Part shown: positions 13,129 through 46,325 of the stretch, in pieces
Position numbering within the stretch: the first letter of the stretch is position 1
Layout: each line of letters begins with the position of its first letter
Position numbers and translations under genes: made by a program
The notes under the pieces: generated by a model
Told to the model about the DNA's origin: nothing
Databases searched by the model: none
Seen by the model: only the letters and a program-made list of their open reading frames with translations
Source of the DNA: Gammaproteobacteria bacterium
GTDB taxonomy: Bacteria; Pseudomonadota; Gammaproteobacteria; Tethybacterales; Persebacteraceae
Assembly (NCBI GenBank): GCA_051008975.1
Contig: JBPCXA010000144.1
Location: 1 to 46,325 of the forward strand
Direction: 5' to 3'
DNA length: 46,325 nucleotides

Positions 13129-13353
13129 ATGACCCAGATCACCGTCGCTCGAATTTGCCTGGGACGAGGTACGATGAGCGCTCCCGACTGGCGTATATTG
13201 CTCCGAAAATATATCGCATACATCCGATGGTGGGAGGGTTCTGACGGTTTGGTTACGAAAACATCTGGCGATCCTGATATCCCCCAAGAAGAATGGGATC
13301 TTTTAAAGGGCGTTGCGGAAGAGATCGATAGTGAAAAGAAGACGAGACGATGA
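13129..13353 (+). CDS. Hypothetical protein (74 aa) sharing its first 7 codons with the SNF2 gene
   Basis: ATG after GAGAGAACGAGAGAAC. Begins MTQITVA, the same as the gene at 13350. Stop overlaps the next ATG. The longer ORF-track version (12991) would run through a promoter. Confidence 0.6.
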   Translation: MTQITVARICLGRGTMSAPDWRILLRKYIAYIRWWEGSDGLVTKTSGDPDIPQEEWDLLKGVAEEIDSEKKTRR

Positions 13354-15026
13354 CCCAGATTACCGTCGCCCAGGGCAAGATCTACATCCGCACGCCGTTC
13401 CAAAACAAAGACCGGTGTAAGGCGATCAACGATGCTCGCTGGTCGCCGACGAACAAGTGCTGGTACTATCCGGCGACGCCTGCCACCGCGCGGGCAATCA
13501 TGACCGGCTTCAATGGTCAGCAAGTGAAAAGCGATGAAGCGTTCCAAGAACTTTTTGCAGAATCGGAGATAACCAGACATATCAACAAAGCACGTGATTT
13601 TGGCTTTCTTTCTGGATTGCCGGAGCCACGAAGTAAGACCAAATCCTGGGACCATCAAACGAAAGCATTTCATTTTTGCAAAGATAAATCCGCAACTATG
13701 CTCGCCTTCGAGATGCGCTGCGGCAAGTCCAAGACGGCGATCGATCTGGCAGTCCACTGGGATGCCCGTCTGGTTCTGGTCACTTGTCCGCTTTCGGTCC
13801 TGCCAGTGTGGTTTTCCGAATTCGGTACCCATGCCGCGGAGGATTATCGTGTTCTTTTACTGAGCAAAGGCTCGACCAAGAATCGAGCGCGCGAGCTTGG
13901 GCAATTCGTCGATCTCTGCCGTACGGCGAAATGCCGCGGCGCCGTCGTCGTCAACCATGAAGCTTCATGGCGCGAGGACATGGCCAAGGTCATCCTTCAT
14001 GCCGACTTCGATCTTCTGATCGTCGACGAGAGTCACCGTGCCAAGGACCGGCGCGGCAAGTTCTCCGGGTTCCTCAACAAGCTGGCGGCCCAGGTGCCGC
14101 ATGTCCTGGCATTGACTGGCACGCCGATGCCGCATTCGCCGATGGATATCTTCGCGCAGTACCGATTCCTCGATCCGGGCATCTTCGGCACGTCGTTCTT
14201 CAAATTCCGCAACCGTTTTGCGGTCATGGGCGGCTGGCAGGACAAGCAGATCGTCGGTTACCAGAACCAGGAATTGCTGTCGGAGCTGTTCAATTCGATC
14301 GCCTACAGGGTGAAGCAACGCGACGCGATCGACCTGCCGCCCGAAGCCGATATCGAGCGCTACTGCGAGCTGAGCCCGGAGGGACGGCGGGTCTACGAGG
14401 AGCTAAAACGCAACTTCGTCGCCGAGGTCAAGGGCGGCATCGTCACCGCTTCAAACGCCATGGTCAAGATCCTGCGTTTTCAACAGGTGACCAGCGGTCA
14501 TGTCAAGCTGGAAGACGGCAAGACAATCCTTATCGACGGTGGGGAGACGCCGCCCAAGCTCAAGCTGCTCAAGGAAGTAATCGACGACGAATCGGCGCGC
14601 AGCAGATCCGAAACCAGACCGTTGCATGTTGTCGTTTTTTGTCGTTTCCGCCGAGATCTCGATGAGATCAAGCGACTCTGCCAGTCCGAAGGAAAGTATC
14701 AGTACGGCGAGATCTCTGGCAGCCGGAAAGACCTGACTGAACAAGCGAAGATGCCGAGCTGGTGCGAGGTCATGGGGGTCCAGGTCCAAGCCGGCGGCAT
14801 GGGTATCGACCTGTCGCGGGCGGCCACCTGTATCTTCTATTCGACGGGATTGGCGCTCGGCGACTACGAGCAGTGCAAGAGCCGGGTGAAGAGCCATGCC
14901 AGCGCCGCCAAGATCACCTATATCCATCTTTTGGCGCGCGAGACCTACGACGAGACGATCCTGAAGGCGCTGACCCAGCGCAAGAACGTAGTCGAGTATG
15001 TCATGCAGCTGGCGAAGGGCACATGA
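13350..15026 (+). CDS. SNF2-family DEAD/H helicase
   Basis: Motifs CGKSKT (I), LIVDESHRAK (II), LALTGTPMPHSPMDIF (III), QAGGMGIDL (V), QCKSRVKSH (VI). Confidence 0.9.
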   Translation: MTQITVAQGKIYIRTPFQNKDRCKAINDARWSPTNKCWYYPATPATARAIMTGFNGQQVKSDEAFQELFAESEITRHINKARDFGFLSGLPEPRSKTKSWDHQTKAFHFCKDKSATMLAFEMRCGKSKTAIDLAVHWDARLVLVTCPLSVLPVWFSEFGTHAAEDYRVLLLSKGSTKNRARELGQFVDLCRTAKCRGAVVVNHEASWREDMAKVILHADFDLLIVDESHRAKDRRGKFSGFLNKLAAQVPHVLALTGTPMPHSPMDIFAQYRFLDPGIFGTSFFKFRNRFAVMGGWQDKQIVGYQNQELLSELFNSIAYRVKQRDAIDLPPEADIERYCELSPEGRRVYEELKRNFVAEVKGGIVTASNAMVKILRFQQVTSGHVKLEDGKTILIDGGETPPKLKLLKEVIDDESARSRSETRPLHVVVFCRFRRDLDEIKRLCQSEGKYQYGEISGSRKDLTEQAKMPSWCEVMGVQVQAGGMGIDLSRAATCIFYSTGLALGDYEQCKSRVKSHASAAKITYIHLLARETYDETILKALTQRKNVVEYVMQLAKGT

Positions 15027-15271
15027 TCAGCTTTGCCACCGAGATGCTGGATTGGTGCCTGGGACAGCGCATGAATGCCGTCAACCTCTTGATGAAAACT
15101 TTGTTCAAGAACGAATGCTGGATCGTCATGGCACTGTCGGAAGAGGAAAAAGCATGGGAAGCGCGCGGTAATCTGTCGCGAATGCAGCTGGCCGAGGTCG
15201 CCGAATACGTCCTTGACGTAGCGACTGAAGATTCGAGTGACGACGAGCCTGGCGAGACCGTCATGCATTGA
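15023..15271 (+). CDS. Hypothetical acidic protein (82 aa)
   Basis: ATGA overlap with the SNF2 stop. In frame with the ORF-track 14762..15271 tail. Confidence 0.55.
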   Translation: MISFATEMLDWCLGQRMNAVNLLMKTLFKNECWIVMALSEEEKAWEARGNLSRMQLAEVAEYVLDVATEDSSDDEPGETVMH

Positions 15272-15278
15272 GGAGCCT

Positions 15279-15560
15279 ATGGACGCCGAAGTTATCGATA
15301 ACCAAAATCCCTTGCGGGCGTGGCGTTTCAGTCATCATCCGGTCAAGACTCAAAGCCAGATTGCGACCCTGCCGGAGTTGTGCGTTACGGAACAGACCGT
15401 ACGCAACTGGGAGAACGGCAGGGTGTTGCCTGCCGAGCACCATCTCTATGCCTTGAGCCTAATCATGGGCAACCCAAACCTAGCGAGCGAATGGTATGCA
15501 TGGCGCCGCTTAACAATGGAGCAAGCTGATGGGAACCAAGAGACTCGTCGGGAAACGTAA
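15279..15560 (+). CDS. XRE-family helix-turn-helix protein (93 aa)
   Basis: GAGGAG RBS. TQSQIATLPELCVTEQTVRNWENGRVLP is a classical HTH_3 pattern. Confidence 0.75.
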   Translation: MDAEVIDNQNPLRAWRFSHHPVKTQSQIATLPELCVTEQTVRNWENGRVLPAEHHLYALSLIMGNPNLASEWYAWRRLTMEQADGNQETRRET

Positions 15561-16023
15561 CGATATCAGCCTGCTGCGGCAATACGCCAAGCTGATGGCG
15601 GCGAAGGCCCGCAAGGAAGACTCTCTGGAGCTGACCAAGGCCAATATCGAGGCAGTCGAGCTTCGAGTGTTGGACTACTTACAACGTCAGGGCATAAAGG
15701 CGATCAAGATCCATACCGGCAACGGCCAATATCGCAACGTGCAAGTACGCCGGGATCTCTGGCCCAAGAAGTTGGCCGACGATACCGGCGTTCAATTGAA
15801 AGCGCTCGAACTGGCCGGCCTCAAAGACAACGGTCAGGTTTCGGTTAATGTTCAGTCGCTCCGCGGCGTCATCAACGAAGCGGTGCTCGACTACCACAAC
15901 AATTCCGATGACGCCGACGCCGCAAGCAAGACGCCCGAAGAAATCCTGTGGACACGCTATCCGGCCTTGAAGGGTATCATCGGAATCAGTGAGGAATTCA
16001 CCGTGAGGGCGCCCAAGGTATGA
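15529..16023 (+). CDS. Hypothetical replication-module protein (164 aa; coiled-coil N-terminus, possibly Gp157-like)
   Basis: Uninterrupted GC3-rich ORF overlapping the HTH gene by 32 nt. The family guess is weak. Confidence 0.5.
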   Translation: MGTKRLVGKRNDISLLRQYAKLMAAKARKEDSLELTKANIEAVELRVLDYLQRQGIKAIKIHTGNGQYRNVQVRRDLWPKKLADDTGVQLKALELAGLKDNGQVSVNVQSLRGVINEAVLDYHNNSDDADAASKTPEEILWTRYPALKGIIGISEEFTVRAPKV

Positions 16024-16247
16024 CCAAGGTAGTTGCGCAAACGAATGATGACATCCACAAGATCTGGCGCGAGATCGAGGACATGCTGATCAGGATCCTG
16101 CCGGAGCATGCCGAGCAAATCAGTTTGCTCATGGACGATGAGAAGTTTCAGGGCTTATTGTTGTCCGCCGCGGCGCAGAATTTCAATGCCGACCAGACCA
16201 AGCGCCTGGTCACCAACGTTTTGATCTTGCGGGGTATGATTCACTGA
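16020..16247 (+). CDS. Hypothetical protein (75 aa)
   Basis: ATGA coupling on the 5' side and TGATG coupling on the 3' side. Confidence 0.6.
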   Translation: MTKVVAQTNDDIHKIWREIEDMLIRILPEHAEQISLLMDDEKFQGLLLSAAAQNFNADQTKRLVTNVLILRGMIH

Positions 16248-16546
16248 TGACTTGCTTTCCGCCGAGCGAAGCCCAGGATCATCTTTGCTGCGTCGACGGC
16301 TGCGGCGAACGAATCCCTGTTGATGAAAATAGCCAGTTTACCAAAATCGGCGTTGCCACAAAACGTGTCTGCGCTGGACCACGGTGCGCCGGCTGGCGCT
16401 GGGTCTACGGCGACCCGGCTGATTCCAAGACCATCGGCGGCATCCTGCTGCCATCAAATCTATGGCCCGGCTTCTGTGGACGGGCCGGTCCATTGACGCA
16501 GGACGCCTTGTCCCGCGCCTATAAGCTAGGAGAAAAAGGAGAGTAA
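16247..16546 (+). CDS. Hypothetical Cys-rich protein (99 aa)
   Basis: TGATG coupling. CCVDGCG...C...C...C pattern. Confidence 0.6.
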   Translation: MTCFPPSEAQDHLCCVDGCGERIPVDENSQFTKIGVATKRVCAGPRCAGWRWVYGDPADSKTIGGILLPSNLWPGFCGRAGPLTQDALSRAYKLGEKGE

Positions 16547-16548
16547 GC

Positions 16549-17289
16549 ATGGCACAAGAAATCGTCCCCGTGGCCGACTACGCGGTCATGAAGCGCGATC
16601 CCAAAGAGGTCGCGGCGCTCTTGAAGGAGAATCTCGGCGGCACCCAGATCGATCGTTTCGCGCTCGACCGGATCAAGATCCCGGCGGGCGGCGGCACGAT
16701 CTGGTCGGTACCGTCGCTGGAGGGCGACCAGGGAGCGAAATCGATCGAGGGCGTCGTGATCGACTGGTTCGAACCGCGCGCCTATTGGGCTACGTCGTTC
16801 GATGAATCCGGCGGCGGCACGCCGCCCGACTGCGCCTCAGAGGACGGTCTCACCGGCCGAGGCCAGCCCGGCGGTGACTGCGCCAAATGTCCGCTTTCGC
16901 AGTTCGGCTCCGCGCCCGGCAAGAAGAACGGTGAGTTCAGCCGCGGACAGGCCTGCCGTCAAGCGCGGGTGCTGTTCCTGCTGCGGCCGTCCCTCCTGCT
17001 GCCACAGGTCGTGATCTGCCCGCCGACCTCGCTCGGTGCCGTGCGCCAGTTCTTCCTTCGTCTGGCGTCCAATATGGTACCGATTTCGCGGGCGCTCTGC
17101 TCATTCAAGCTGGAAGAGGACCGCAACGCCGACGGCATCAAATATTCCAAGATGTTGCCTTCCATGGTGCGCCAGCTTGGCGATGAAGAGGCAGCCAAGG
17201 TCGAGAGCTACGCCAAGAACATGCGGCCGATGCTGCGCCAGGCAATCGATCTCCAGCGCGGGGACTTAGAGACGCCGCCGGCCTCTTGA
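16549..17289 (+). CDS. Conserved-looking replication-module protein with C..C..CP Cys cluster (246 aa)
   Basis: AGGAG RBS. PPDCASEDG...GGDCAKCP...GQACRQ motif. I could not name the family. Confidence 0.6.
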   Translation: MAQEIVPVADYAVMKRDPKEVAALLKENLGGTQIDRFALDRIKIPAGGGTIWSVPSLEGDQGAKSIEGVVIDWFEPRAYWATSFDESGGGTPPDCASEDGLTGRGQPGGDCAKCPLSQFGSAPGKKNGEFSRGQACRQARVLFLLRPSLLLPQVVICPPTSLGAVRQFFLRLASNMVPISRALCSFKLEEDRNADGIKYSKMLPSMVRQLGDEEAAKVESYAKNMRPMLRQAIDLQRGDLETPPAS

Positions 17290-17295
17290 TCTTCC

Positions 17296-18915
17296 ATGGC
17301 CGATCTGCCGTCATTGGAAGTGCCCGCAGTCGCGGAGCTGGCCCAGCATGACCAATGGGTTTGCTGGCGCGAGGTTGGCCGGCAAGGTAAGAAGACCAAG
17401 TTGCCATACCGTCCCGACGGTCGCATGGCCAGCGTGACCGATCCGAGTACCTGGTCTTCATTCCAGGCGGTGACATCGGCCTTTATCGATTCGGCCGACA
17501 TAAACGGGGTCGGTTTCGTGCTCAGCAAATCCGATCCCTATATCTTCGTCGATCTCGATAAGTGCATCAAAGACGGCAAACTGGCAACTTGGGCCGATCT
17601 GCTGGTGAGGCAAATTGATTCATTCACCGAGATCAGTCCAAGTGGCCGAGGCATTCATATCATCCTGAGAGGCAGCCTACCGGGCCGCTCGCGGCGAAAA
17701 GGTCAGATCGAGATCTACGATCGTGAACGTTATTTCACTGTTACGGGGGACTGCTATGCTCGCAGTTTAAACTGCGAGCGTGAATCGATCGAGGACAGGC
17801 AACCGGAAATAGCCGCTGTCTACCAAGCCCATATGGGCAAATCTTCGCCTGCGGTTAACACGGCGGCTCACAAGGGAAATGGCCAGGATCGCAAGGCGGA
17901 GCCATTCGAAGATCATCTCCAGGCCGCCCAGCGCGCGATCGACGGCGATAGCGCATTGCCGAATGGCAAGCTGGCGTTGTTGTTTGCCAATAGCGATCAG
18001 ACATTGGCGTGCTGGGCTAAGAAATCCGGGGACAGCAAAGGCTGGTCGGCTTCGGAATGGGATCTGTCATTGGCCAATCACCTGACGGCATGCCGATTCA
18101 CGCCGCAAGAGATCACCGTGACGCTGTTGGCTTATCGTGAGCGTCATGGCGACGAGCCGAAGTTGCGCGCCGATTACTATGCACGGACGATTGCGATTGC
18201 GTTGACCAATCCACTTGCGGGGGAAAACGATAAAGAACTGGAAACGGATAGTTCGGCGATTCTGCTGGATCCGACCAAACCGCCGGAAGAAGTCTATCGC
18301 GAAATCAGTGAGCTGTTTGGCATCGATCTGCGTAAAATGGAAATCTATCCGGGCATCGATACCAAGTTCAAGTTCTATGTCTTCGCCCGCAGCTTGATCC
18401 GCACGGCATCCGGCGCGGCGCGGCATTTCAGATCGCAGTCGTTCTTCGCCGATTTGATCATCAACTCCTGCTTCGTGCCGCCTAACAAGGTGAGCAAGCG
18501 ACGTTACGACCAAGCGATGAAAGCCCTATTGCACGTTGCCGATCTGGTCGAGGTCGGCGAAGATGCGACGGAAGAGGCCAATACGATCGGTTTATTCGAA
18601 AGCTACATGGAGGCGGCAAGACTACCGGCGGTGCTGGACAATGCCAACGAGGAAGAACGAATCACCTCCGGCAATCCTTTCTATCTGCATGGCCAGCTTT
18701 ATATCGTGCTCGACGATTTTCTGACCGCGGTGAAGAATTTCCATGGCGAGCGCGGCATGACCAAGCCCAGATTAGCGCGCATGATCAAGGAAGTAGGCTT
18801 CGAGCAAAAAACCGTGCCGAGCATCCGAAAGGACAAATCACGCTCGACCCGCAGCGTCTATGCCGTGCCCGAACAGCTGTGGCACATGGAATCGAAGGAG
18901 AGACTAGAGGCATGA
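17296..18915 (+). CDS. Bifunctional DNA primase-polymerase (prim-pol) with C-terminal primase-associated domain
   Basis: W.CW...KLPYRP...GVGFVL...FVDLDKC...ISPSGRGIHIILRG...EIYDRERYFTVTG are the archaeo-eukaryotic primase (prim-pol) motifs. Confidence 0.85.
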   Translation: MADLPSLEVPAVAELAQHDQWVCWREVGRQGKKTKLPYRPDGRMASVTDPSTWSSFQAVTSAFIDSADINGVGFVLSKSDPYIFVDLDKCIKDGKLATWADLLVRQIDSFTEISPSGRGIHIILRGSLPGRSRRKGQIEIYDRERYFTVTGDCYARSLNCERESIEDRQPEIAAVYQAHMGKSSPAVNTAAHKGNGQDRKAEPFEDHLQAAQRAIDGDSALPNGKLALLFANSDQTLACWAKKSGDSKGWSASEWDLSLANHLTACRFTPQEITVTLLAYRERHGDEPKLRADYYARTIAIALTNPLAGENDKELETDSSAILLDPTKPPEEVYREISELFGIDLRKMEIYPGIDTKFKFYVFARSLIRTASGAARHFRSQSFFADLIINSCFVPPNKVSKRRYDQAMKALLHVADLVEVGEDATEEANTIGLFESYMEAARLPAVLDNANEEERITSGNPFYLHGQLYIVLDDFLTAVKNFHGERGMTKPRLARMIKEVGFEQKTVPSIRKDKSRSTRSVYAVPEQLWHMESKERLEA

Positions 18916-19160
18916 CCGAGCGGATCACCGACAAAGAGCTGGATAAGTGGGAAAGGCGTGTCAAAGATGCGCGAACCATGACGCAGCTTGGTGTTGAATG
19001 CGAGCGATGTGTTCCAGCCCTCATCACCGAGATCCGCGAGCTGCACAAGGAGATAGAGCGGTTGCAACCTTTGGCGCAAGTTCACCTGGACACGAAACGG
19101 CGTATTCGTGAGGCGATAGGCGACCCGAGAACAGCCGTCATTTTGGAAAGCAAGCCATGA
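18912..19160 (+). CDS. Hypothetical protein (82 aa)
   Basis: ATGA overlap with the primase stop, and ATGA overlap with the next gene. Confidence 0.6.
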   Translation: MTERITDKELDKWERRVKDARTMTQLGVECERCVPALITEIRELHKEIERLQPLAQVHLDTKRRIREAIGDPRTAVILESKP

Positions 19161-19780
19161 CCACTGACCCGATAGAGCGCGCGTCGCGGGCGATGCGTGA
19201 GAGCGATTGGTGGTTTCTGCAGGATGACCAAATGTTATCGCAGACAGCCATCCGTGAGTATAAAGCCTGGCTCACCGAACAAGGCATCCCCATAGCCAAG
19301 CTCTTGAGCGAAGGAACCGACGTTGCGGACTTGCAGCGAAGAAAGGACGAAGCATACCACGAGCGCAATAAGGTTGTAGCTGTACTAGCTCGTTTGTTTC
19401 CTTCGGGAGTGGCCAAAACCAATATAGAGGATTGGAGCCCAGAATGGCATAGTTGTGTTTACATCGACTTACCAACCGGCCAAGTCTCTTGGCACTTCCA
19501 TGACAGCCAGACCTATTTGTTTGAAGGACTGCCAGCATATCAAGGTAAATGGGACGGGCATACAACCGAGGAGAAATATAACCGTTTATTCAAGCTCTTG
19601 AGCGGGGAGATGGTGGCAGTGACCAAGGATTTTCATGATCTATCAACACAAGTAGTCGCGGAGGCAAACGACACACCTTTGGTGCAACGTTGGTTGGCGG
19701 CACGGCATAAAGCCTTGTGGCAAGCCCGAGCCGACCAGGAGAGGAAGCGATGGAGTGGCAACCGATCGAGAGCGCGCTGA
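19157..19780 (+). CDS. Hypothetical protein with WDGH motif (207 aa)
   Basis: ...LPTGQVSWHFHD...YQGKWDGHTTEEK... pattern. GC content falls from here on, by eye. Confidence 0.6.
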   Translation: MTTDPIERASRAMRESDWWFLQDDQMLSQTAIREYKAWLTEQGIPIAKLLSEGTDVADLQRRKDEAYHERNKVVAVLARLFPSGVAKTNIEDWSPEWHSCVYIDLPTGQVSWHFHDSQTYLFEGLPAYQGKWDGHTTEEKYNRLFKLLSGEMVAVTKDFHDLSTQVVAEANDTPLVQRWLAARHKALWQARADQERKRWSGNRSRAR

Positions 19781-19953
19781 CAATAACTTTCCCGAAACGC
19801 TGCAGCGAGCCAAACTGCGAAACCGATCCGATCGTGCGCATTTCATCACGTCTTTGGTGTGCAAGACATGCAATCGGAGAAATCGAACGCGATGAACGAC
19901 CAGACTCAACTGCCGAGCGTAGGCGACGGCAAAAAACAACGGCGCCTCTTTAA
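19750..19953 (+). CDS. Hypothetical small protein (67 aa)
   Basis: GGAGAGGAAG RBS before ATG 19750. Codon bias decays in the 3' third, which overlaps the next ORF. Confidence 0.4.
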   Translation: MEWQPIESALTITFPKRCSEPNCETDPIVRISSRLWCARHAIGEIERDERPDSTAERRRRQKTTAPL

Positions 19954-20086
19954 ACAAGGAACCTGTAAAACCTGTAAGATTCCGCTGTACGGCTACAAAG
20001 AAGGCAGGCGCGATCAGTGTGGTCATGATGATTGTGAGGTCTACGATGCCGATCGGGAGTATGCACAGAACGCAAATCTTCGATGA
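19892..20086 (+). CDS. Small zinc-ribbon-like protein (64 aa)
   Basis: GGAGAA RBS. CKTCK...QCGHDDC motif. An alternative start exists at 19859. Confidence 0.45.
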   Translation: MNDQTQLPSVGDGKKQRRLFKQGTCKTCKIPLYGYKEGRRDQCGHDDCEVYDADREYAQNANLR

Positions 20087-20321
20087 AGTGAGCGAGCGAG
20101 GCGCAGCGAATTCTCCGCTAGGAATGGCATATTGGGCCGGCACCGGACCAACGGGCAAGGCGTGCAACGACTGCCGGCACTTCAGGCAAACATCATTGAG
20201 GAAAGGCAGGTGTCTAAAATTCCGGCCGATGACGAAGAGGCAGGCCCCGGTGTTCAACAGGTTTACTAAAGCTTGCAGGTATTTCGAGGATGCAACCATG
20301 AAAGGAAAGGCAAATGAGTAA
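20061..20321 (+). CDS. Small Cys-containing protein (86 aa)
   Basis: GGGAG RBS before ATG 20061. CNDCRHF...RC...AC motif. Confidence 0.5.
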   Translation: MHRTQIFDEVSERGAANSPLGMAYWAGTGPTGKACNDCRHFRQTSLRKGRCLKFRPMTKRQAPVFNRFTKACRYFEDATMKGKANE

Positions 20322-20523
20322 CGAAGACAACAGTTCCGGCGGCGGTGGCCCCCGCGAGCCGGCTTTTCATTGCACGCGCATTCATGTCATTCATCGGAAT
20401 GAGCAAGAGCGCCAGGATCGATGGAACATCGTCAACGGTTGGATGCAGGCCGGCGAAGTGCCAACAGACCCGCCTGATTGGGCCGAAATTCTGATCAATC
20501 ATGGCGGCGGCGGCGGACCATGA
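20314..20523 (+). CDS. Hypothetical protein with Gly-rich ends (69 aa)
   Basis: ATG overlaps the upstream gene by 8 nt. The stop overlaps the next ATG. Confidence 0.5.
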   Translation: MSNEDNSSGGGGPREPAFHCTRIHVIHRNEQERQDRWNIVNGWMQAGEVPTDPPDWAEILINHGGGGGP

Positions 20524-21101
20524 ATCTCGCACTTCTATACGACTTCGGGGGTAGCTTCTTCAACAACGGCTTCACGCTGTTGTTGATAGCTATCCTCGCA
20601 GTCTCTTCCCTTGCATTCAAGGCACGGCCTTCCCTTGCCGGTCTTGCCGCCATTCTACTTTACGTGGTATCGTTCCTTCTATCTAACATGTGGTTGTTGG
20701 CCGACGACCGCAATGCAGCGCTAAAACTCTATCAACTAGGCGCCTTCGTTGTGATCGTTCTCTATGTCGGGCTGTTGTGGTGTTTCATTAGGAAACCCCA
20801 ATTGTTAAAGCAAAACGATGTCATCGCACAGCTCTATTGGATCGTTCTTCTATTTGCCGAATTCGGCCAGGCGCTCGAATATATGGCCTGCCGAGTCTTG
20901 CATGACCCCTATACGGAAATCGAGCTGGCAAGATCGTGGGGAACAACCGTAAGCAAATATGCCTGCAGTCGTGCCTATGGTGAATTTGCTCCTTACGTGC
21001 TTCCGGCGATCACGACCCTATTTCTAGCGTGGCCGGCAGTGAGGGCGTATCAGGTATGGAAACAAACGACAGCATCTGGCGGGCGGTCTTCGGAACATTA
21101 G
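20520..21101 (+). CDS. Multi-pass inner-membrane protein (193 aa, about 5 hydrophobic segments)
   Basis: ATGA coupling. Successive 18-22-residue hydrophobic stretches (LLLIAILAVSSLAF, LAAILLYVVSFLLSNMWLL, LGAFVVIVLYVGLLWCF, LYWIVLLFAEF, VLPAITTLFLAWPA). Confidence 0.65.
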   Translation: MNLALLYDFGGSFFNNGFTLLLIAILAVSSLAFKARPSLAGLAAILLYVVSFLLSNMWLLADDRNAALKLYQLGAFVVIVLYVGLLWCFIRKPQLLKQNDVIAQLYWIVLLFAEFGQALEYMACRVLHDPYTEIELARSWGTTVSKYACSRAYGEFAPYVLPAITTLFLAWPAVRAYQVWKQTTASGGRSSEH

Positions 21102-21298
21102 GCGCCTTGGTCGGCATGTTGGCCATGTTGATGCGCACGATCATCATGAAACCGAATGGCAAATCACGCGAGCAGGAAATGTTGCGCCGCGATATCGATA
21201 ATATCCAATCGATCGTCTCAGAGATGCGTCGCGACATTGATCGGCTCTACACCCGACGCGAAATCGAGGAGCGGATTCAAAGAGAAAAACAGCAATGA
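21056..21298 (+). CDS. Membrane-anchored coiled-coil protein (80 aa)
   Basis: One TM (AVFGTLGALVGMLAMLM) followed by a charged helix. The stop overlaps the helicase ATG. Confidence 0.5.
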   Translation: METNDSIWRAVFGTLGALVGMLAMLMRTIIMKPNGKSREQEMLRRDIDNIQSIVSEMRRDIDRLYTRREIEERIQREKQQ

Positions 21299-22887
21299 AG
21301 GAATATCATGTCTATGGCCCGCCGGGCACCGGCAAGACTCGGCGCGCCGAACAGGATGTCGTCAGGGCGGCCGAGAAATTCGGCAAGGACCAGGTTTTGG
21401 TGACTGCATTTACGCGCGCCGCTGCCGCCGAGCTGATCGATCGCGATCTCGATATTCCGAAACGCAACGTCGGCACCTTGCATTCGATTTGTTACCGCGC
21501 GCTTGACCGGCCGATCCTGGCGGAAACCAAGACTGCCGAATTCAACGAGCTGCACCCTAACTTCGCGGTCGCCAGCGCCAAGGTCAATGTCGAGGAAGGC
21601 AAGATCGAGGCAGGTCAAACGAACGGCCAGAGCAATCTACTGCAGACCTATCAGCTGCATCGTGCCCGCATGACGCCGCGCGATGCCTGGCCGAGCGAGG
21701 CGGTCAGAAATTTCGCAAAACTGTGGGAAAGCTGGAAAAAGGATACCGGCTATTATGATTTCACCGACCTCATTCAAGCGGCACTTGACACGATGCCCTT
21801 CGCCCCGGGTCGGCCCAAGGTCGGCATTGTCGACGAGGCCCAGGATCTCACCGCGCTGGAATGTGCCCTTGTGCGGTCCTGGGGCATCGCCATGGAATAC
21901 CTCATCCTCATCGGCGACGACGACCAGTGCATCTTCGAATTTACAGGTGCTTCGGCCGCCAACATGGTCGGAGCGGCTTTGCCGCGAGAGCACAAACGGT
22001 TCCTGACCAAATCCCACAGGTTGCCGCGGAGGATATGGGAGTATGCGCGGGCGATCAGCGCCAGGATCGAACAGCGCCAGGAAAAGGAGTTCGAGCACAA
22101 TGGCACGGAAGGATCAGTCCATACCGCTTCATGCGGCGATTGGCGCCGGCCTGAAGCCATTGCCGACGACATGGAAGCTCGACTGGAGATTGGTGAACGG
22201 ATCATGGTGCTGGGTTCATGTGGTTACATGTTGGTGCCCCTTATCCGGGAGCTTCGTCGAAGAGGTCTTCCCTTCCACAATCCGTACCGGGTGACCCGCG
22301 GGGACTGGAACCCGATCAATCGCGCTGCCGGTTCGACCATGAACCGGATCGCCGCGTTTCTCAACGGCGCCGAGAACGTGGTGCCGAGCTGGAGCGTCGG
22401 CCAAATGGTCATGTGGACCGATCTGGTCAAGGCCAAGCATCTCCTGAAGCACGGGGGCAAGAAACGATTGGAAAAAATGAACGACGAATCGCCGGCGAGA
22501 CTGCTTGGCTATCATGACTGGCTGGAGCTGTTCGAAGAGGACCCATGGGGCTGGGATCCCTGCACATTGGACTGGCTCAAGGAGAATGCCTTGCCGAGCA
22601 AGCTGAAACAGATGGAATACCCGATGACCGTGGTCGAGAAGCATGGCCTGCAGACCCTGCTCGACCGGCCGAGGATCGTGGTTGGCACGATACACAGCGT
22701 TAAGGGCGGCGAGGCCGATACGGTCTACGTTTTCCCGGATCTTTCGACCCAGGGCAGCCTGCGTGCGCTCGATGCCGAGAGCGATCACACCATGCGGCTG
22801 TTCTATGTCGCCGCCAGCCGGGCTCGGCATAACCTGGTACTGTGCAGGCCGGCCGGGCCTTACTTCGCGAGGTTGCCTGATGCGTAA
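21295..22887 (+). CDS. UvrD/Rep-like superfamily-1 DNA helicase
   Basis: GPPGTGKT (Walker A), GIVDEAQDL, LIGDDDQCIFEFTGAS, SHRLP, TIHSVKGGEADTVYVF, YVAASRARHNLVL. Confidence 0.85.
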   Translation: MKEYHVYGPPGTGKTRRAEQDVVRAAEKFGKDQVLVTAFTRAAAAELIDRDLDIPKRNVGTLHSICYRALDRPILAETKTAEFNELHPNFAVASAKVNVEEGKIEAGQTNGQSNLLQTYQLHRARMTPRDAWPSEAVRNFAKLWESWKKDTGYYDFTDLIQAALDTMPFAPGRPKVGIVDEAQDLTALECALVRSWGIAMEYLILIGDDDQCIFEFTGASAANMVGAALPREHKRFLTKSHRLPRRIWEYARAISARIEQRQEKEFEHNGTEGSVHTASCGDWRRPEAIADDMEARLEIGERIMVLGSCGYMLVPLIRELRRRGLPFHNPYRVTRGDWNPINRAAGSTMNRIAAFLNGAENVVPSWSVGQMVMWTDLVKAKHLLKHGGKKRLEKMNDESPARLLGYHDWLELFEEDPWGWDPCTLDWLKENALPSKLKQMEYPMTVVEKHGLQTLLDRPRIVVGTIHSVKGGEADTVYVFPDLSTQGSLRALDAESDHTMRLFYVAASRARHNLVLCRPAGPYFARLPDA

Positions 22888-23455
22888 ACCAGTCGACGCG
22901 AGACCCAACTTCGGCCAGATCACCGGATCGAATCCGCGCGCGATCATACAATCGAGCAATCAGGTCGTGGCCAACATCACCAGACTGCTGCGCCGATACG
23001 GACGGCATATCAATCGCAACCCGGCGGGCCAGACGTTGGTCCTGGTGCATCGCAACGGAGCCAATCAGGCATCGATTGCGGGGACACCGACCCTGGTGAA
23101 TTACACAACGGCGGCGATCGACAACAACAACAGCTGGTTCGATCTGACGAGCGAGCGTTTCATCCCCAAGGTCGAAGGCTGGTACCTGCTGGCGGCGGCG
23201 GCCAAGTTCCAAACCCCGGGAGACGGTATAGTGATTCAGCAGCGACTGACCAAGAACGGCTCTACGGTGGTCGCTATTGCAGACGCAGTCCCCGGAGCCG
23301 GCGGTGTCAGTGTGTCGTGTCCGGCATGCCTGGTGATGGTCGAATTCAACGGCTCGACCGACTATGTCGAGCATTATGTCTTACAGAGCGGCGGCGGCGG
23401 TACACTACAAGGCGCCAGCGAATCGACCAGATTCATGGCTTGGCGGCTGCTCTAA
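22880..23455 (+). CDS. Beta-rich protein (191 aa), possibly a jelly-roll / C1q-like fold
   Basis: GAGG RBS. ATG overlaps the helicase end. F.PKVEGWYLLAAAAKF...NGS...VEFNGSTDYVEHYV pattern. The fold guess is tentative. Confidence 0.45.
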   Translation: MRKPVDARPNFGQITGSNPRAIIQSSNQVVANITRLLRRYGRHINRNPAGQTLVLVHRNGANQASIAGTPTLVNYTTAAIDNNNSWFDLTSERFIPKVEGWYLLAAAAKFQTPGDGIVIQQRLTKNGSTVVAIADAVPGAGGVSVSCPACLVMVEFNGSTDYVEHYVLQSGGGGTLQGASESTRFMAWRLL

Positions 23456-23712
23456 TGTAATACAATACGGCCCGCCCTGACCGCCGCGGTGATATAGTCG
23501 CCGGCTTGGACCAACTGAAAATCGAAATCAACCTCCTGATTCCATTGAATCGCCGATCCGCGTGCTAGATAAGCGGTATATTCGGCGGCCGACATGCTAT
23601 GGCGGCGCTGCGAGATATAACCGAGAATCTCGGCGTCGATCTGGCCATGGGAGGTCCAGGGCGCCAGCTCGTCGCCATTCCCGAAATGCGTTTGGAGCTT
23701 GACATCGGCCAT
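23452..23712 (-). CDS. Hypothetical protein (86 aa), solitary reverse-strand gene, probably leaderless
   Basis: About 80 percent G/C at third codon positions on the minus strand. Stop overlaps the stop of the convergent + gene. ATG lies inside the promoter-like inverted repeat at 23699..23747. Confidence 0.6.
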   Translation of the reverse strand: MADVKLQTHFGNGDELAPWTSHGQIDAEILGYISQRRHSMSAAEYTAYLARGSAIQWNQEVDFDFQLVQAGDYITAAVRAGRIVLH

Positions 23713-23728
23713 AAGTTATGTTTATGCT
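23699..23728 (+). promoter_or_regulatory. Sigma-70-like rightward promoter of the small-ORF operon
   Basis: TTGACA-N18-TATGCT, the same architecture as the promoter at 13024. Confidence 0.6.
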
Positions 23729-30897: not shown

Positions 30898-30971
30898 GGC
30901 GATTCATCATTGATTAATAAACGGTATTTATGGTAATGGTGACTCTCCAGCAAGCATGAAAGGACAAGGTT

Positions 30972-32418: not shown

Positions 32419-32447
32419 TTGCAGAATAGGGCAGCATGCCCTATATG
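32419..32447 (+). promoter_or_regulatory. Promoter of the HTH-terminated four-gene operon
   Basis: TTGCAG-N17-TATATG (or N19-TATGAT), 15 nt after the terminator T-tract. Confidence 0.55.
32427..32443. promoter_or_regulatory. Perfect palindromic operator candidate TAGGGCA-GCA-TGCCCTA
   Basis: 7-3-7 inverted repeat spanning the promoter spacer and -10. Extra TAGGGCA half-sites at 32453 and 33307, and AGGGCA at 32821. Confidence 0.7.
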
Positions 32448-33343: not shown

Positions 33344-33523
33344 ATGGAACGCGAATTAATCAAACAGCAATATCCTGGATTTACGGTTACATGTGACAAA
33401 TGCGGTTCAGATGAAGTCTATTTGCACATGAATACGCTAGGTTGGTCGCCTGAAAGTGGAGGATGGGGTGATGTTTCGCTGAGATGTGACTGTGGAAACG
33501 CGGTAATCATCATAGAGTCATGA
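33344..33523 (+). CDS. Zinc-ribbon protein (59 aa)
   Basis: GGAGGA RBS. CDKCG...CDCG motif. Preceded by a third TAGGGCAA box. Confidence 0.55.
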   Translation: MERELIKQQYPGFTVTCDKCGSDEVYLHMNTLGWSPESGGWGDVSLRCDCGNAVIIIES

Positions 33524-33699
33524 CCCCCGCTGACCTCAAATCCGCCCGCAAGCAGCTCGGTCTAACTCAAACACAGCTGGCCGAGCGCTTGCGCATGGGA
33601 AAGAACGGCGGTCGCACCGTTCGACGGTGGGAATCGGGTGACTGCCCGATCCCGGGTCCGGTCGAGGTAGCAATAGAATTTTTGTTACCACAAAGCTGA
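33520..33699 (+). CDS. Small XRE-type helix-turn-helix protein (59 aa), not in the ORF track; candidate operon autoregulator
   Basis: ATGA overlap with the upstream stop. Product MTPADLKSARKQLGLTQTQLAERLRMGKNGGRTVRRWESG... is a canonical HTH_3 pattern. Confidence 0.7.
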   Translation: MTPADLKSARKQLGLTQTQLAERLRMGKNGGRTVRRWESGDCPIPGPVEVAIEFLLPQS

Positions 33700-33888
33700 C
33701 GGACGCGGTTTAAACTGCCCGATTCTCCGGTCCTTAGAACATGGTCTGACAAGCTGGATGGTTTTCCCCCTGGACATATCATATTCGACTGTCAGAGGCG
33801 CACAATTGGGCACACAGGGGGTTGAACGGCTACACCAGATGCCGCAGACCTGGCATAGTGCTTAGCGGCCGCTCATTTCATCCGCTTT

Positions 33889-34270
33889 CCTTATATAGGA
33901 ATCTTGTATTTTAAGATTTAAAATGCAAATACATGTATTTATCAATGATATCAATTACCTACACTTACAGTTTAAAAACGTCTGCATTTTAAATTTAACA
34001 TGCAGTTTATGGTAAGCATGCATAAGGTTTATGGTATCGAGAACCATAAACGGAGTTTATTAATTCTGCATCTTAAATTTAAATTCTACGAAAACCAATT
34101 TAGCCCGGTTTAATTAACATGCAGAAACCATAAACGTTCAAATTCTTAAACCACATGAAACACGTTAAATATATTAAATCTACTATAACCGCCTGCAAAT
34201 ATGACCATTTAATTGAGAGTCTTATAATTGGTATATGTTTGGTTTAAATTTTAAATTTTCGTTTTTTCCC
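33889..34270. promoter_or_regulatory. AT-rich iteron block (candidate origin / packaging-initiation / promoter hub)
   Basis: Striking drop in GC relative to the flanks. No ORF. Repeated TTTATGGT/ACCATAAA (x4), TTAACATGCAG (x2), TTAAATTTAA and CTGCAT-N12-ATGCAG. Confidence 0.6.
34201..34228 (+). promoter_or_regulatory. Possible terS promoter
   Basis: ATGACC-N16-TATAAT. Promoter-like hexamers are easy to find in AT-rich DNA. Confidence 0.3.
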
Positions 34271-34306
34271 ATATAGTAAGAACGGCAAAACTGTGGGGAA
34301 CGAGCG

Positions 34307-34954
34307 ATGCAACTAGCAGAGCGCGAACGAATCAAGCGGGAGCTGCGCGGCAGCTCAAAACGCAAGCGCACACGATACGCCGCAAATCAGCGTTGCCTGT
34401 TCCAAACGACCAAGCTCGAACGGATCAAGGCATTCACGTCACCCTACAGCGCCGAAGCACTCCACATCGCAATCCTGGAGCTGGTCAAGGCCGAGTCACC
34501 AAAAGGCCGGCCGTTCGAGTATTGCCCGATCATCGCTGCCGAGATCTTTCACCAGCTCTGTCAGGGCAAGACGCTGTTCGAAATCTGCGACCAGCCCGGA
34601 ATGCCGATCGTAAATGCGGTCTACGTTTGGGTAGATCGGGTCCAGGACTTCGCTAGGGCGTTCGAACGCGCCAGGTATTATCAGGCCGACGGAATGGCTT
34701 ACCGGGCCATTCAAACGGTCGCAGAATGCCCTAACGACCGCGATGCGGGGTATGTTGCCAGGGTCAAGGCCGAGACGTTTCTGCGGGTCGCAGGACGGCT
34801 GAATCCGGCCAAATGGAGCGAACGCGGCGACAATCAGGCGCCTGTCAACATCTCGATCAACACGAATCTGGACCTGGCCAAGCCTGAATCGAAGCCAGAC
34901 GGCAGTTACGTGGTCACCTTGAACCCGGAAGAGATAAAGAAATCAAAGGACTAG
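34307..34954 (+). CDS. terS: Terminase small subunit
   Basis: ...IFHQLCQGKTLFEICDQPGMPIVNAVYVWV...FARAFERARYYQADGMA...NPAKWSERG matches the common HTH-type TerS pattern. First gene after the large non-coding region. Confidence 0.75.
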   Translation: MQLAERERIKRELRGSSKRKRTRYAANQRCLFQTTKLERIKAFTSPYSAEALHIAILELVKAESPKGRPFEYCPIIAAEIFHQLCQGKTLFEICDQPGMPIVNAVYVWVDRVQDFARAFERARYYQADGMAYRAIQTVAECPNDRDAGYVARVKAETFLRVAGRLNPAKWSERGDNQAPVNISINTNLDLAKPESKPDGSYVVTLNPEEIKKSKD

Positions 34955-35157
34955 CAGTTTATCAGCGCATAACAAACAATATGGAAACTGGCACTCCGGG
35001 GGGGCGGGACCCCCCTGACGGGTCCCATGGCATCGGCCGCGCGCTTTGCCCCACCCCTCTCCGTCCCATCTTCGCGCGCCCGAAAAAATTCTTCCCTCGC
35101 GCGGGAACATCGTTTATGGTCTAAGTCCGCGATTGACAGCAGAGGAGTTTTTGGCTC

Positions 35158-36533: not shown

Positions 36534-37358
36534 ATGACTGGTCGGTCTGAGATCGTGTTGCTGACCGACAACGACCCATTTTGCTGCGACGTTTTGCGCG
36601 CGCGCGTGGCGGACGGCAGCCTCAAGGGTGACGTTTTGCAAAAGGATGTGCGGGAGCTGACCGGCGATGACCTTCGACCTTTTCGCCAAGTCCACTTGTT
36701 TGCCGGAATCGGCGGCTTCGCGCTTGCCCAGAAGTGGAGCGGATGGCCCGAAGACTGGTCCCTCGTCACCGGAGGACCACCCTGCCAGCCGACTTCCATT
36801 GCCGGAGCCCAAAGGGGCGAAGCCGACCCACGTTATCTCTGGCCGGAGATGGCTCGGCTTATTGAAGAACGACAGCCTGATTTCGCGTTGTACGAGAATC
36901 CTACTGGAACGCCCGAGCTGGCGATCGATCGAGTGCTCGTTGACCTGGAAAGCCTCGGGTACGAGGTCGGGGCATACGTTATTCCGGCTTGTGCCGTTGG
37001 AGCGATGCACCAACGGAATCGCTTCTGGATTGTTGCCCACTCTGGCGGCATCGGATGCACGAATGGCGCGAATCTTAACGGATCGTATTCGCAGCCGAGC
37101 ATATCGAACGTCGGGCAACTCGTGGCGTCAAAAGTTCAGGGAAACAGAGAGCTCCAATCTGATGCTCACCAGATCCCTTGCTTTGGAACTGGAATACCTT
37201 ACGGGCGAGAGGAACGAGCGACCTTTATTAGACGTGCACTTTGCCGAGAAGTTCATGGGTTACCCGACGAACTGGACCGAATTGCCGCCCTCGGCAACGC
37301 CATCGTCCCCCAGGTCGCAACCGTCGTCATGAAAGCGATGATTCGGGCAACGCGATGA
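36534..37358 (+). CDS. DNA cytosine-5 methyltransferase (short phage type, 274 aa)
   Basis: Motifs in order: LFAGIGGF (I), GGPPCQPTS (IV), YENP (VI), GAMHQRNRFWIVA (VIII), LGNAIVPQV (X). The stop overlaps the terL ATG. Confidence 0.8.
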   Translation: MTGRSEIVLLTDNDPFCCDVLRARVADGSLKGDVLQKDVRELTGDDLRPFRQVHLFAGIGGFALAQKWSGWPEDWSLVTGGPPCQPTSIAGAQRGEADPRYLWPEMARLIEERQPDFALYENPTGTPELAIDRVLVDLESLGYEVGAYVIPACAVGAMHQRNRFWIVAHSGGIGCTNGANLNGSYSQPSISNVGQLVASKVQGNRELQSDAHQIPCFGTGIPYGREERATFIRRALCREVHGLPDELDRIAALGNAIVPQVATVVMKAMIRATR

Positions 37359-38842
37359 CCGAGGAGATCCGCCGGGTCGATTTTCTGGCCAATCCGATCC
37401 AGAAGCTGTTCATCGAATCGCACGCCCGGGCCGATCTCTTCGCCTCGCGCATGGGCGAGGGCAAGTCGGCCGGCCTCTGCTGGGCCATCGTTTATCATAC
37501 CCGCCACAACCCGGGCGCGTCCTGGGCCTTCATCCGCGATACCTGGGAGAACCTGCGCGATACCTCGCTGGTCGAGTTCCTGCACTGGTTCCCGGCCGGC
37601 ATCTTCGGCACCTGGAAGGCGTCCGACAAGACCTATACCTGGCGCGGCAACGCGGTCGGCCTGCATGGCCGGGTCTACTTCCTCGGCATGGACGACGAGC
37701 GCGATTCCGCCAAGCTGCAGTCGCGCCCCCTGGCCGGGATCGCCATCGACGAGCCGGCTCCGGCCGCCGATTCGGTCGGTGTCTCGGAGATGATCTTCGA
37801 TGTCGGCTTGAGCCGCCTACGCCAGAAGGGCATGAACTGGTATGCGGTCAAGCTGGCGACCAACAACCCGGACGAGACCCACTGGACCCACCGGCGCTTC
37901 GTCGATCCCGGCACGTCCGGCTTCATGTGCTTCCAGCCCAAGGAGCAGGAGAACAAGCACAACCTGCCGCCCGGCTATTACGAGCAGCTGGCCAGCGACT
38001 GGGCCCACCGCCCGGATCTCCGGCGCCGCTTCATCGAGGGCAAGTTCGGCTTCCAGCAGATCGGCAAGGCGGTCGCCAAGGCCTGGAGCGATCAGCTGCA
38101 TCTCGCTTCGCAATTGCAGCCGATAACCCGCCGCGAGTTGATCCTGCTGTGGGATTTCGGGCTCAACCCGACCTGCGTGATCAGCCAGGTGACACCGGCC
38201 GGCGTGTGGAACATCCTTCAGGCTTTCGGCGGCGACGGCATCGGCGTCGAGGAGCTGATCGAGGACGATGTTCTGCCGGCGCTCTCCAAGGACTATCCCT
38301 GGGCGCTCGGCTCGAAGAAGCGCGGCAGGAAGGCGATGCTGCGTCATATCGGCGATTCCATGGGCAAGACGCCCGAGGCCTCGTCGTCGAACCGTTCCGC
38401 GGTCAAGACGCTGCGCCGCATGCTCGGCGGTTCCTGGCGCGACGGGCCGGTGCCTCTGGCCGACGGTGTCGGACCGCTCAACAAGCGGCTTTCCAAGGTC
38501 ACGATCGATGTCGACGGTCGGCCGATCGGGGTCATCCGGGTTGATCGCCTCAAGGCGAAGATCGTCTGGCACGCGCTGCGCGGCGGCTGGCACTTCAAGG
38601 TCTCCAACACCGGCATGGTTTCGCGCGAGCCGAACAAGTTGAGCGTTCACAGCCATCCCGGCGATTGCATGCGTTACGGTGCTGGGGTGCTGTTTCCCAT
38701 GGGCGATGCCGGATCGCGGCGCGGCAAGTATCGCAAGGCGGCCCATGCGAAGTATTTCGAGGCGACCGGTGCCGGCGCTCACGGGCGCGCAAGACCGGGC
38801 TTGATCTTGCCCAAGGAAACGCGCATCATCACCAGACCCTAG
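37355..38842 (+). CDS. terL: Terminase large subunit
   Basis: ATGA overlap with the methyltransferase stop. Walker A-like MGEGKSAG, Walker B-like GIAIDEP, and a nuclease-domain LLWDFG motif. 495 aa. Confidence 0.85.
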   Translation: MTEEIRRVDFLANPIQKLFIESHARADLFASRMGEGKSAGLCWAIVYHTRHNPGASWAFIRDTWENLRDTSLVEFLHWFPAGIFGTWKASDKTYTWRGNAVGLHGRVYFLGMDDERDSAKLQSRPLAGIAIDEPAPAADSVGVSEMIFDVGLSRLRQKGMNWYAVKLATNNPDETHWTHRRFVDPGTSGFMCFQPKEQENKHNLPPGYYEQLASDWAHRPDLRRRFIEGKFGFQQIGKAVAKAWSDQLHLASQLQPITRRELILLWDFGLNPTCVISQVTPAGVWNILQAFGGDGIGVEELIEDDVLPALSKDYPWALGSKKRGRKAMLRHIGDSMGKTPEASSSNRSAVKTLRRMLGGSWRDGPVPLADGVGPLNKRLSKVTIDVDGRPIGVIRVDRLKAKIVWHALRGGWHFKVSNTGMVSREPNKLSVHSHPGDCMRYGAGVLFPMGDAGSRRGKYRKAAHAKYFEATGAGAHGRARPGLILPKETRIITRP

Positions 38843-45963: not shown

Positions 45964-46325
45964 ATGGTCTGGCTCTGGGATGCACCGGCTGGGGTCTACA
46001 AGGACCACGCACTATCCTCCAATATCCGGCGGCAGGCGGCGGCCGATTCACAGTTCATGCGCTTCGTGAGGCCCGAGCCCGGGTATGGCCGCGGCAAGGG
46101 CCAGTCGATCACCATCACGCGTTACAGCCAGCTGCCCCTGGCGACCCGGGTCAACGAGGCCGACCGCCTGCCTACGGGACGGCCTTTGGTCGATACCAAG
46201 TCGATCACGGTCGGTGAGTGGGGCTTCCTGATTGAGACGACCAAGTTCGAGGAAGATCTCTCAGCCGAGGACCAGACCAACCAGTTCCAGCAGATGCTGC
46301 GCGATCAGATGCGTCTGACGATGGA
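45964..46325 (+). CDS. Major capsid protein, N-terminal part (continues at position 128 of the circle, i.e. 1..692 of this window)
   Basis: AGGGAG lies 7 nt before ATG 45964. The ORF runs off the window end with no stop. The last 127 nt duplicate 1..127. Confidence 0.75.
   Translation, partial: MVWLWDAPAGVYKDHALSSNIRRQAAADSQFMRFVRPEPGYGRGKGQSITITRYSQLPLATRVNEADRLPTGRPLVDTKSITVGEWGFLIETTKFEEDLSAEDQTNQFQQMLRDQMRLTM
46199..46325. repeat. Terminal overlap copy B (identical to 1..127)
   Basis: As for copy A. The length of 127 equals a common assembler k-mer size. Confidence 0.95.

Follow-up and report, generated by a model that had tools for sequence, protein, structure and literature searches.

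An AT-rich repeat block ahead of the terS gene of a podovirus-type phage as a candidate control region for late transcription

What does a large, AT-rich and repeat-bearing stretch of gene-free DNA do when it lies immediately ahead of the small terminase gene (terS) of a phage? The question is raised by positions 33889-34270 of a 46,325-bp window, which is the whole stretch of DNA analysed here and an entire contig from a 2.35-Mb metagenome bin. An initial annotation took this block for a replication origin, a packaging-initiation site, or both. The block belongs to a familiar general type of cis-acting control region, and the role tentatively placed first here is that of a transcription-control hub heading the packaging and structural late gene cluster. 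In the weighing presented below, this is the only reading with locus-specific support, which comes from the distribution of a 9-mer word across the genome and from the need for a late promoter. The readings as an origin and as a packaging site are, on present evidence, unproven and less likely than a late-transcription role; taken jointly, the two form a serious possibility that ranks below transcription control.

The word GTTTATGGT occurs five times in the genome against 0.09 expected, with four copies in the core of the block and one at 35112. The degenerate form [AG]TTTATG[GC]T is found at nine sites genome-wide against 0.42 expected, eight of the nine being intergenic, and outside the block members of this word class lie at 13045, 23720, 30926 and 35112. 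At the first two of these positions the word supplies the TATGCT -10 hexamer of the genome's two cleanest sigma-70 promoters, both on the + strand: TTGACG-N18-TATGCT at 13024-13053, which heads the replication genes, and TTGACA-N18-TATGCT at 23699-23728, which heads the accessory-gene region; the -10 region of each reads GTTTATGCT. The other two lie at gene starts. The + strand copy ATTTATGGT at 30926-30934, just past a strong terminator hairpin (30868; -16.6 kcal/mol), ends 37 nt before the ATG at 30972, and the fifth exact copy of GTTTATGGT, on the + strand at 35112-35120 in the gap downstream of terS, ends 37 nt before the ATG at 35158; both ATGs are preceded by a Shine-Dalgarno (SD) sequence. 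The word thus shares its sequence with the other promoters of the genome and its fixed 37-nt position with two gene starts, a distribution from which we infer that it marks the starts of transcription units. It would do so either as an extended -10 element or as the site of a phage regulator acting at promoters. The copies that have GG in place of GC show no consistent -35 partner, which points to a second class of promoter that depends on a factor (middle or late). Because the word stands at promoter positions elsewhere, it is not a site specific to an origin or to the TerS protein.

Two further observations concern the word itself. The promoters at 13024-13053 and 23699-23728 are paralogous, sharing the arrangement gcTTGACn-N5-CATAA-N5-GTTTATGCT with similar spacers, and the spacer element CATAA(c/g) is a partial inverted copy of the -10 word, such that each promoter may carry a small operator. 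Elsewhere in the bin, GTTTATGGT is found just downstream of TATAAT-type boxes in AT-rich intergenic DNA at C59:7895 and C55:9963; the bin-wide count, with the phage contig excluded, is 16 against a rough base-composition estimate of ~8, and this may be coincidence.

The need for a late promoter follows from the organization of the genome. The first 127 bases of the contig are identical to its last 127 (1-127 vs 46199-46325), and the junction falls inside a gene that crosses the ends (45964 -> 692). From this the window is recognized as a complete phage genome, 46,198 bp long, circularly assembled and binned into a bacterial metagenome-assembled genome (MAG). The late cluster occupies ~25 kb of this circle, from the terS start at 34307 round to 13027. 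In a scan of the + strand of the genome, the only intergenic, high-scoring -35/-10 pairs upstream of genes were those at 13024, 23699 and 29226, with a weaker match (9/12) at 45061 that lies inside a gene, and no canonical promoter was found among the high-scoring pairs before the late cluster. The gene cassette on the other side of the block, of the Aca type, is self-contained, with its own promoter and a palindromic operator, TAGGGCAGCATGCCCTA, at 32427. Since no promoter candidate precedes the late cluster and the upstream cassette has a promoter and operator of its own, a late promoter is to be expected in the gap between them. The cumulative AT skew of the genome also turns beside the block, at ~34,987, with a range reached in 0 of 2000 block shuffles, and this turn marks a major domain boundary. 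The skew has two domains: between ~14 and 35 kb the + strand has more A than T, and from 35 kb round to 8 kb it has more T than A.

Four things are seen directly: the composition and repeats of the block, the largely intergenic, promoter-linked distribution of the 9-mer over the genome, the lack of a canonical late promoter and, in relatives, a variable gene-free gap conserved in position. The mechanism by which the block would control late transcription is a proposal in all its steps. RNA polymerase would start late transcription inside a 607-bp gap that contains the block, and the AT-rich flanks would provide easy melting together with UP-element-like contacts, substituting for the missing -35 box. 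GTTTATG(G/C)T would be the promoter-associated word of the phage, with four copies packed in the core, two facing each way. An inverted pair of copies at 34027-34051 could also serve as an operator and as a weak hairpin stopping read-through from the upstream Aca-type cassette. In phage SPP1, the strongest A+T islands correspond to regions of transcription control and to both origins, and the packaging site, pac, overlaps late promoters upstream of gene 1 (PMC6316719). By this analogy, a packaging site or an origin is possible as a second role in the same DNA.

Several features sit less comfortably with a late promoter. The gap contains sigma-70-like hexamer pairs on the + strand, namely ATGACC-16-TATAAT (10/12) at 34201-34228, 79 nt before the terS start, and TTTAAA-16-TATAGT at 34250-34277, 30 nt before it, but such matches number three in the gap against 2.7 in shuffles and so prove nothing alone. 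The GTTTATGGT class lacks a consistent -35 partner when inspected by eye, and the two rightward copies of the block lie ~270-300 nt upstream of the terS start, which implies a long leader. The presence of four copies, facing both ways inside 130 bp, goes beyond what a simple promoter needs and fits any protein-binding array, and conservation of 9/9 bases in five copies exceeds what -10 recognition by sigma-70 alone demands. All of these weigh against the reading preferred here.

The physical properties of the block are as marked as the initial annotation had supposed. Its GC content is 0.277, compared with 0.599 for the genome, and no other 300-bp window on the contig falls below 0.33 GC; the rest of the bin contains one further, borderline window of this kind, in a 4-kb contig of low GC. 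Of all 100-bp duplex windows in the genome, the two with the lowest stability fall within the block (-111 kcal/mol vs a mean of -154, sd 8.5). The gene-free gap proved wider than had been described, extending from 33700 to 34306 (607 bp), and the block ends 36 bp before the ATG of a downstream gene that was confirmed as an Sf6-type terS. Absence of an open reading frame (ORF) was likewise borne out, nothing longer than 37 aa being present, and since none of these short ORFs (<=37 aa) carries an SD sequence, hidden small genes were rejected. No tRNA was found in the block, no Rfam family matched the gap at either the gathering or the E-value threshold, and the fold of the whole block is not significant (z = -1.7 and -0.8), so that a noncoding RNA was rejected as well. 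The description of the block as the only large noncoding region holds only roughly: among clear gaps it is the largest, yet 13028-13349 (322 bp) has no genes either, and 19781-20477 contains only short, weakly coding ORFs.

Within the gap, the left part (33700-33888, 189 bp) is GC-normal at 0.545 and contains no credible ORF, significant fold or Rfam match. It is followed by a left AT-rich flank (33889-33980, GC 0.24), where duplex stability reaches its lowest value in the genome, then by a repeat core (33981-34136, GC 0.31) and a right AT-rich flank (34137-34270, GC 0.26), an arrangement in which the core is flanked on both sides by AT-rich DNA. The last gene before the gap (33520-33699, + strand) ends the upstream cassette and encodes a 59-aa XRE/Aca-type helix-turn-helix (HTH) regulator (Pfam HTH_3, 1.6e-6, HTH_31 and Aca2_YdiL; PHROG transcriptional regulator, 2e-8). 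Binding of the block repeats by this neighbouring regulator was rejected, its own operator TAGGGCAGCATGCCCTA being a different palindrome.

Every repeat previously listed for the block was recovered. The core holds four copies of GTTTATGGT, rightward at 34005-34013 and 34027-34035 (+ strand, 22 bp apart) and leftward at 34043-34051 and 34127-34135 (- strand), along with two copies each of TCTGCATnTTAAATTTAA (33981 and 34065), TTAACATGCAG (33995 and 34114) and AACCATAAACG (34042 and 34126). Direct copies of TTTATGGT lie at 34006 and 34028 and its complement, ACCATAAA, at 34043 and 34127; TTAAATTTAA is found at 33989 and 34073, and a TTTAAAT run at 34243-34259. The repeat content is above chance, the observed number of repeated-k-mer positions being reached in 0 of 1000 dinucleotide-preserving shuffles for k = 7 to 11. 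The TCTGCATnTTAAATTTAA and AACCATAAACG pairs are each 84 bp apart, corresponding to ~8 helical turns; an 84-bp tandem duplication was considered and rejected, the identity at this offset (37/84) being no better than at others. The short direct and inverted repeats behind the term iteron block, used in the initial annotation, are real, but each repeat has two same-sense copies of 9-18 bp in mixed orientation.

Both inverted repeats reported earlier were confirmed. The perfect 9-bp inverted repeat GTTTATGGT-ATCGAGA-ACCATAAAC (34027-34051, N7 spacer) is predicted to form a hairpin on either strand (-10.1 kcal/mol, z = -3.2, and -10.0 kcal/mol, z = -4.5), with a 9-bp stem that contains three GC pairs and is followed by GGAGTTTATT. 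It was flagged as terminator-like and is weaker than the -16.6 kcal/mol terminator at 30868; its possible roles are those of an operator, a weak hairpin terminating in both directions, or both. The palindrome CTGCAT-N12-ATGCAG (33982-34005) has a predicted RNA hairpin of -6.7 kcal/mol (z = -2.4). A palindrome pattern search returned five viral and 100 genome matches from unrelated, mostly low-GC taxa, about the number expected by chance for 596 Gb.

Comparison with related phages was possible through the large terminase gene terL (37355-38842, + strand, 495 aa), which ties the phage to an uncultured family. Searches with terS found no relatives in IMG/VR, GTDB genomes or a set of 5.8 billion proteins, and no DNA match to the phage was found among GenBank phages. 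terL has hundreds of uncultured relatives at 50-58% identity, many of them on 44-50 kb contigs, and it has no Pfam match and no PDB match to its profile. Named phages are only 23-30% identical in TerL, too remote to assign a pac, cos or direct terminal repeat (DTR) packaging type, and prediction of the packaging type from terL was therefore rejected.

Gap sizes were taken from the seven relatives in which called genes span the DNA upstream of terS, and the family statistics on the gap also draw on tblastn positions in IMG/VR loci; a periodicity-based gap finder run on IMG/VR loci was too noisy and was not used for them. A gene-free gap heads the packaging operon in all seven relatives and is large (0.7-2 kb) in six. 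It measures 1994 bp in L273, directly before terS; 1493 bp in L274 and 843 bp in L275, in both cases before a gene of the AAA_25 family that is followed by terS; 787 bp in L270, followed by two small genes, AAA_25 and terS; 727 bp in L082, followed by four small genes and terS; 698 bp in L272, at 73% GC; and 178 bp in L083, where it is a divergent promoter region. The gaps of L273 (7245-9238) and L274 (2429-3921), with 1.5-2.0 kb of gene-free DNA of normal GC, are unusually long for 46-kb phages. No sequence similarity was detected between the gaps of the relatives or to that of the window, and no tRNA or Rfam family was found in the relatives' gaps, each of which has its own short repeats. 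Promoter-like hexamers and these lineage-specific repeats are located at the gene-proximal end, which speaks for transcription control. In L083 there are TTGACA-type boxes at this end, and in L270 a short AT tract ~40 bp ahead of the first gene is surrounded by two direct and two inverted copies of the 9-mer AAGGGTGCC, the same repeat layout as in the window.

At least 33 relatives (L003-L081, L270, L274 and L275; e.g., L270:7374-8483) have the AAA_25 gene interposed between the gap and terS. Its product is RepA/DnaB-like, with a match to the helicase portion of primase-helicases. With a profile made from 35 such proteins, no homolog was detected in the window (best E = 0.69), and the gene has therefore been lost from this phage or was never present, and the gap of the phage abuts terS directly. 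As a separate observation on the relatives, the palindrome TAGGGCA-N3-TGCCCTA, which overlaps the promoter of the Aca-type cassette in the window (32427-32443), recurs at L272:6248-6264, ~40 nt before the terS start of that phage, suggesting that the same regulator-operator system can control the packaging operon directly.

What the relatives do not preserve is the block itself. The initial annotation had made its interpretation depend on survival of the region in close relatives, and by that test it is weakened: the AT-rich block is absent from all those sampled, and the DNA at this place is hypervariable. It may be asked, then, whether the block is largely nonfunctional filler, that is, lineage-specific foreign DNA of low GC that replaced the helicase gene of the relatives, with repeats left over from small duplications and with incidental promoter activity. 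Such an origin for the block would account for the complete turnover of sequence between relatives, none of which has an AT-rich block here, for the missing helicase, and for the imperfect 12-nt direct repeats GAACGGCTACAC (33824) and GAACGGCAAAAC (34280) that flank the block. The repeat content, however, lies far above that of shuffles, no homologous element was found in viral or genome collections, and the 9-mer also stands at promoter positions in other parts of the genome, in DNA of normal GC, so that the block is integrated into the phage's own signal vocabulary. Phage genomes, to our knowledge, rarely keep 400 bp of useless DNA. Filler is accordingly regarded as improbable.

The same composition and gene order bear on the proposal of a replication origin, in which the repeats would bind an initiator, perhaps the prim-pol protein of the phage or its C-terminal half, and the AT-rich flanks would unwind; transcription from the promoter-like words might assist initiation, in the manner of a primary origin of the T7 type. 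No duplex in the genome is less stable than the block, and it offers what an unwinding element requires in the form of AT-rich flanks (24-26% GC) on both sides of the repeat core. No other repeat cluster lies near the replication genes, and the equivalent large gap of relatives lies directly upstream of the AAA_25 gene, the helicase part of primase-helicases, which helps the proposal a little. The replication genes of the phage are 11-20 kb away and the family helicase is missing, both of which count against it; yet in SPP1 oriR, too, is remote from the replication genes and forms part of the late region (PMC6316719), which to that extent speaks for an origin. The AT-skew maximum (~35.0 kb) and minimum (~10.4 kb) lie near the block and its antipode (11.0 kb), but these turning points are also boundaries between early and late genes and do not discriminate, and the GC skew is not significant, being reached in 511 of 1000 shuffles. 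Theta origins of the iteron type have at least three to four same-sense iterons, typically 17-22 bp long and in helical register. The repeats here, at just 2+2 copies of 9-18 bp in mixed orientation, do not form such an array. There is no DnaA box (TTATNCACA within one mismatch) in 33700-34310, and the neighbours of the gap are the Aca-type HTH gene and terS, so that neither DnaA boxes nor an adjacent cognate initiator gene is found. The 9-mer is present at four or five other positions of promoter type. Finally, in relatives the equivalent gaps have a normal GC content, or one as high as 73%, so that a requirement for easy melting is not conserved. An origin in the block is therefore judged unlikely, although it is the likeliest of the alternatives taken singly.

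A more speculative proposal would unite promoter and origin. The lineage might have swapped its helicase gene for an AT-rich element serving as both a late promoter and a transcription-activated origin, with GTTTATGGT marking every transcription-unit start and the four face-to-face copies recruiting a DNA-opening factor for prim-pol. This is a long shot, but if it were true, a single site would couple the timing of late transcription, the start of replication and perhaps packaging, with no dedicated loader for a replicative helicase.

The position of the block directly upstream of terS makes packaging the other obvious candidate. TerS would assemble on reiterated sites beside its own gene, as at a pac or cosB-like site, and the terminase would cut nearby, so that the genome ends or the first headful cut would lie here. 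The short boxes in both orientations resemble those of P1 pac, SPP1 pacL/pacR and the lambda cosB R sites; two motif pairs stand in an 84-bp register of ~8 helical turns; and TerS carries an extra basic N-terminal segment of ~60 residues. As pac and late promoters overlap in SPP1, packaging could also coexist with late-transcription control (PMC6316719). Adjacency of the gap to terS is not conserved, however, the helicase gene intervening in at least 33 relatives, and the 9-mer outside the block, at 30926 and 35112 and in variant form at 13045 and 23720, would amount to stray packaging sites. A bent segment like pacL would show A-tracts phased at ~10.5 bp, and no phasing at 10-11 bp is seen. 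A cos region of the lambda type combines cosB R sites with a site for integration host factor (IHF) by cosN, whereas the gap contains no good IHF site, with one match at one mismatch (33949) and no exact site. In P22- and Sf6-type phages, pac lies inside the terS gene, which also counts against a packaging site upstream of it. The contig junction, inside a gene far from the block, likewise gives no hint of genome ends there. A packaging site is thus viewed as doubtful, somewhat more so than an origin.

Nearly all genes of the phage are on the + strand. terS (34307-34954, + strand; Pfam PF20901 Sf6_terminase, E = 3.8e-20; Sf6 gp1 structures, E = 1e-13) is the first gene of the packaging and structural cluster, and its product is a small terminase of the Sf6 gp1 type with the basic N-terminal extension noted above. 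Small genes and a C5 methylase lie between terS and terL, and portal, head and tail genes follow terL round the circle to 13027. A GP4 gp80-like fibre and an SU10-type adaptor identify the phage as podovirus-type, and its relatives carry an SU10-type portal. The replication genes (13350-23455) encode an SNF2 helicase, prim-pol and a UvrD-like helicase, and accessory operons extend to 33699. The only helicases recognized by Pfam are of the SNF2 and UvrD types, with no Rep-like, superfamily 3 (SF3) or superfamily 4 (SF4) helicase in the window. An attachment site (attP) or partition site was rejected as an identity for the block, there being no integrase, ParA/B or protelomerase among 71 scanned proteins.

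Two other places in the replication region deserve mention. A 23-nt near-identical repeat, ACGATGACCCAGAT[C/T]ACCGTCGC, is found at 13126-13148, in the 322-bp gap past the promoter at 13024, and again at 13347-13369, the second copy being the start of the SNF2 helicase gene and the first its duplicate 221 bp upstream. Further along, 19781-20477 (~700 bp) contains only short ORFs of 45-100 aa with a weak codon signal, two of which have a common AGGAAAGGCA leader, and represents either a series of tiny genes or a second noncoding region. As to the bin, its RpoB is at most 68% identical to those of Burkholderiales and other Pseudomonadota, which makes the putative host a deep-branching proteobacterium, a link that rests on binning and is not proof of host. 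One bin contig, C152 (3974 bp), has 39% GC compared with 60% for the bin and transposase-like text in its ORFs, and is probably mis-binned or a mobile fragment.

These findings carry a caution for annotation: an AT-rich repeat block beside terS is not automatically an origin or a pac site, because the repeat here belongs to a promoter-linked word distributed over the genome. They also define a conserved landmark for a large uncultured podophage family characterized by an SU10-like portal and adaptor and a terL without a Pfam match. The landmark is a big, fast-evolving, gene-free region that heads the helicase-terS-terL module, and it offers a target for mapping promoters, the origin and genome ends, while the 9-mer provides a handle for finding the putative regulator of the phage.

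Placed beside known systems, the block shows partial likeness to several. Origins that join iterons to a DNA unwinding element (DUE), such as lambda ori, SPP1 oriL/oriR and the origins of staphylococcal pathogenicity islands (SaPI) with their Rep helicase, also have short repeats beside easily melted AT-rich DNA, and the equivalent gap of the relatives adjoins a helicase gene; in contrast, the block has two same-sense copies per repeat, no DnaA boxes and no initiator or helicase gene beside it, and its repeat is not exclusive to it. The SaPI origin with its Rep/PriRep helicase differs further in that here AT-rich DNA flanks the repeats rather than the reverse, and no Rep-like, SF3 or SF4 helicase accompanies them. 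The primary origin of T7 consists of the promoters phi1.1A/B followed by an AT-rich stretch. The block resembles it in having promoter-like elements beside AT-rich DNA in a podophage with its own priming enzyme, but no phage RNA polymerase was found in the genome, and the layout is symmetric, with promoter-like words that face each other. P1 pac and lambda cosB consist of clusters of short boxes in both orientations near terminase genes, a description that fits the block too, although it has no good IHF site and no GATC/Dam-type hexamers, and its adjacency to terS is not conserved in relatives of the phage.

SPP1 pac with PL1-PL2, upstream of gene 1 (terS), is alike in being an A+T-rich intergenic island that heads the late packaging genes; there pac extends over the terS start as well as the late promoters (PMC6316719). 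Its TerS is of another family, and its boxes, cut site and promoters were mapped experimentally, whereas the phage described here is known from sequence; a further difference is that the repeated word of this phage also marks other promoters round the genome. Phages of the T4 type distinguish early sigma-70 promoters that have a -35 element from late promoters that consist only of an extended -10-like word, TATAAATA. Two comparable classes may be discerned here, with one word in the -10 region, two copies of it having a good -35 (13024 and 23699), and a second class without a -35 preceding later genes (30926, 34005, 34027 and 35112). The word itself differs from that of T4, no gp55/gp33-like or MotA/AsiA-like protein was recognized in the genome, and the inverted copies and perfect palindrome of the block suggest that it is bound by a dimeric protein rather than by a sigma factor.

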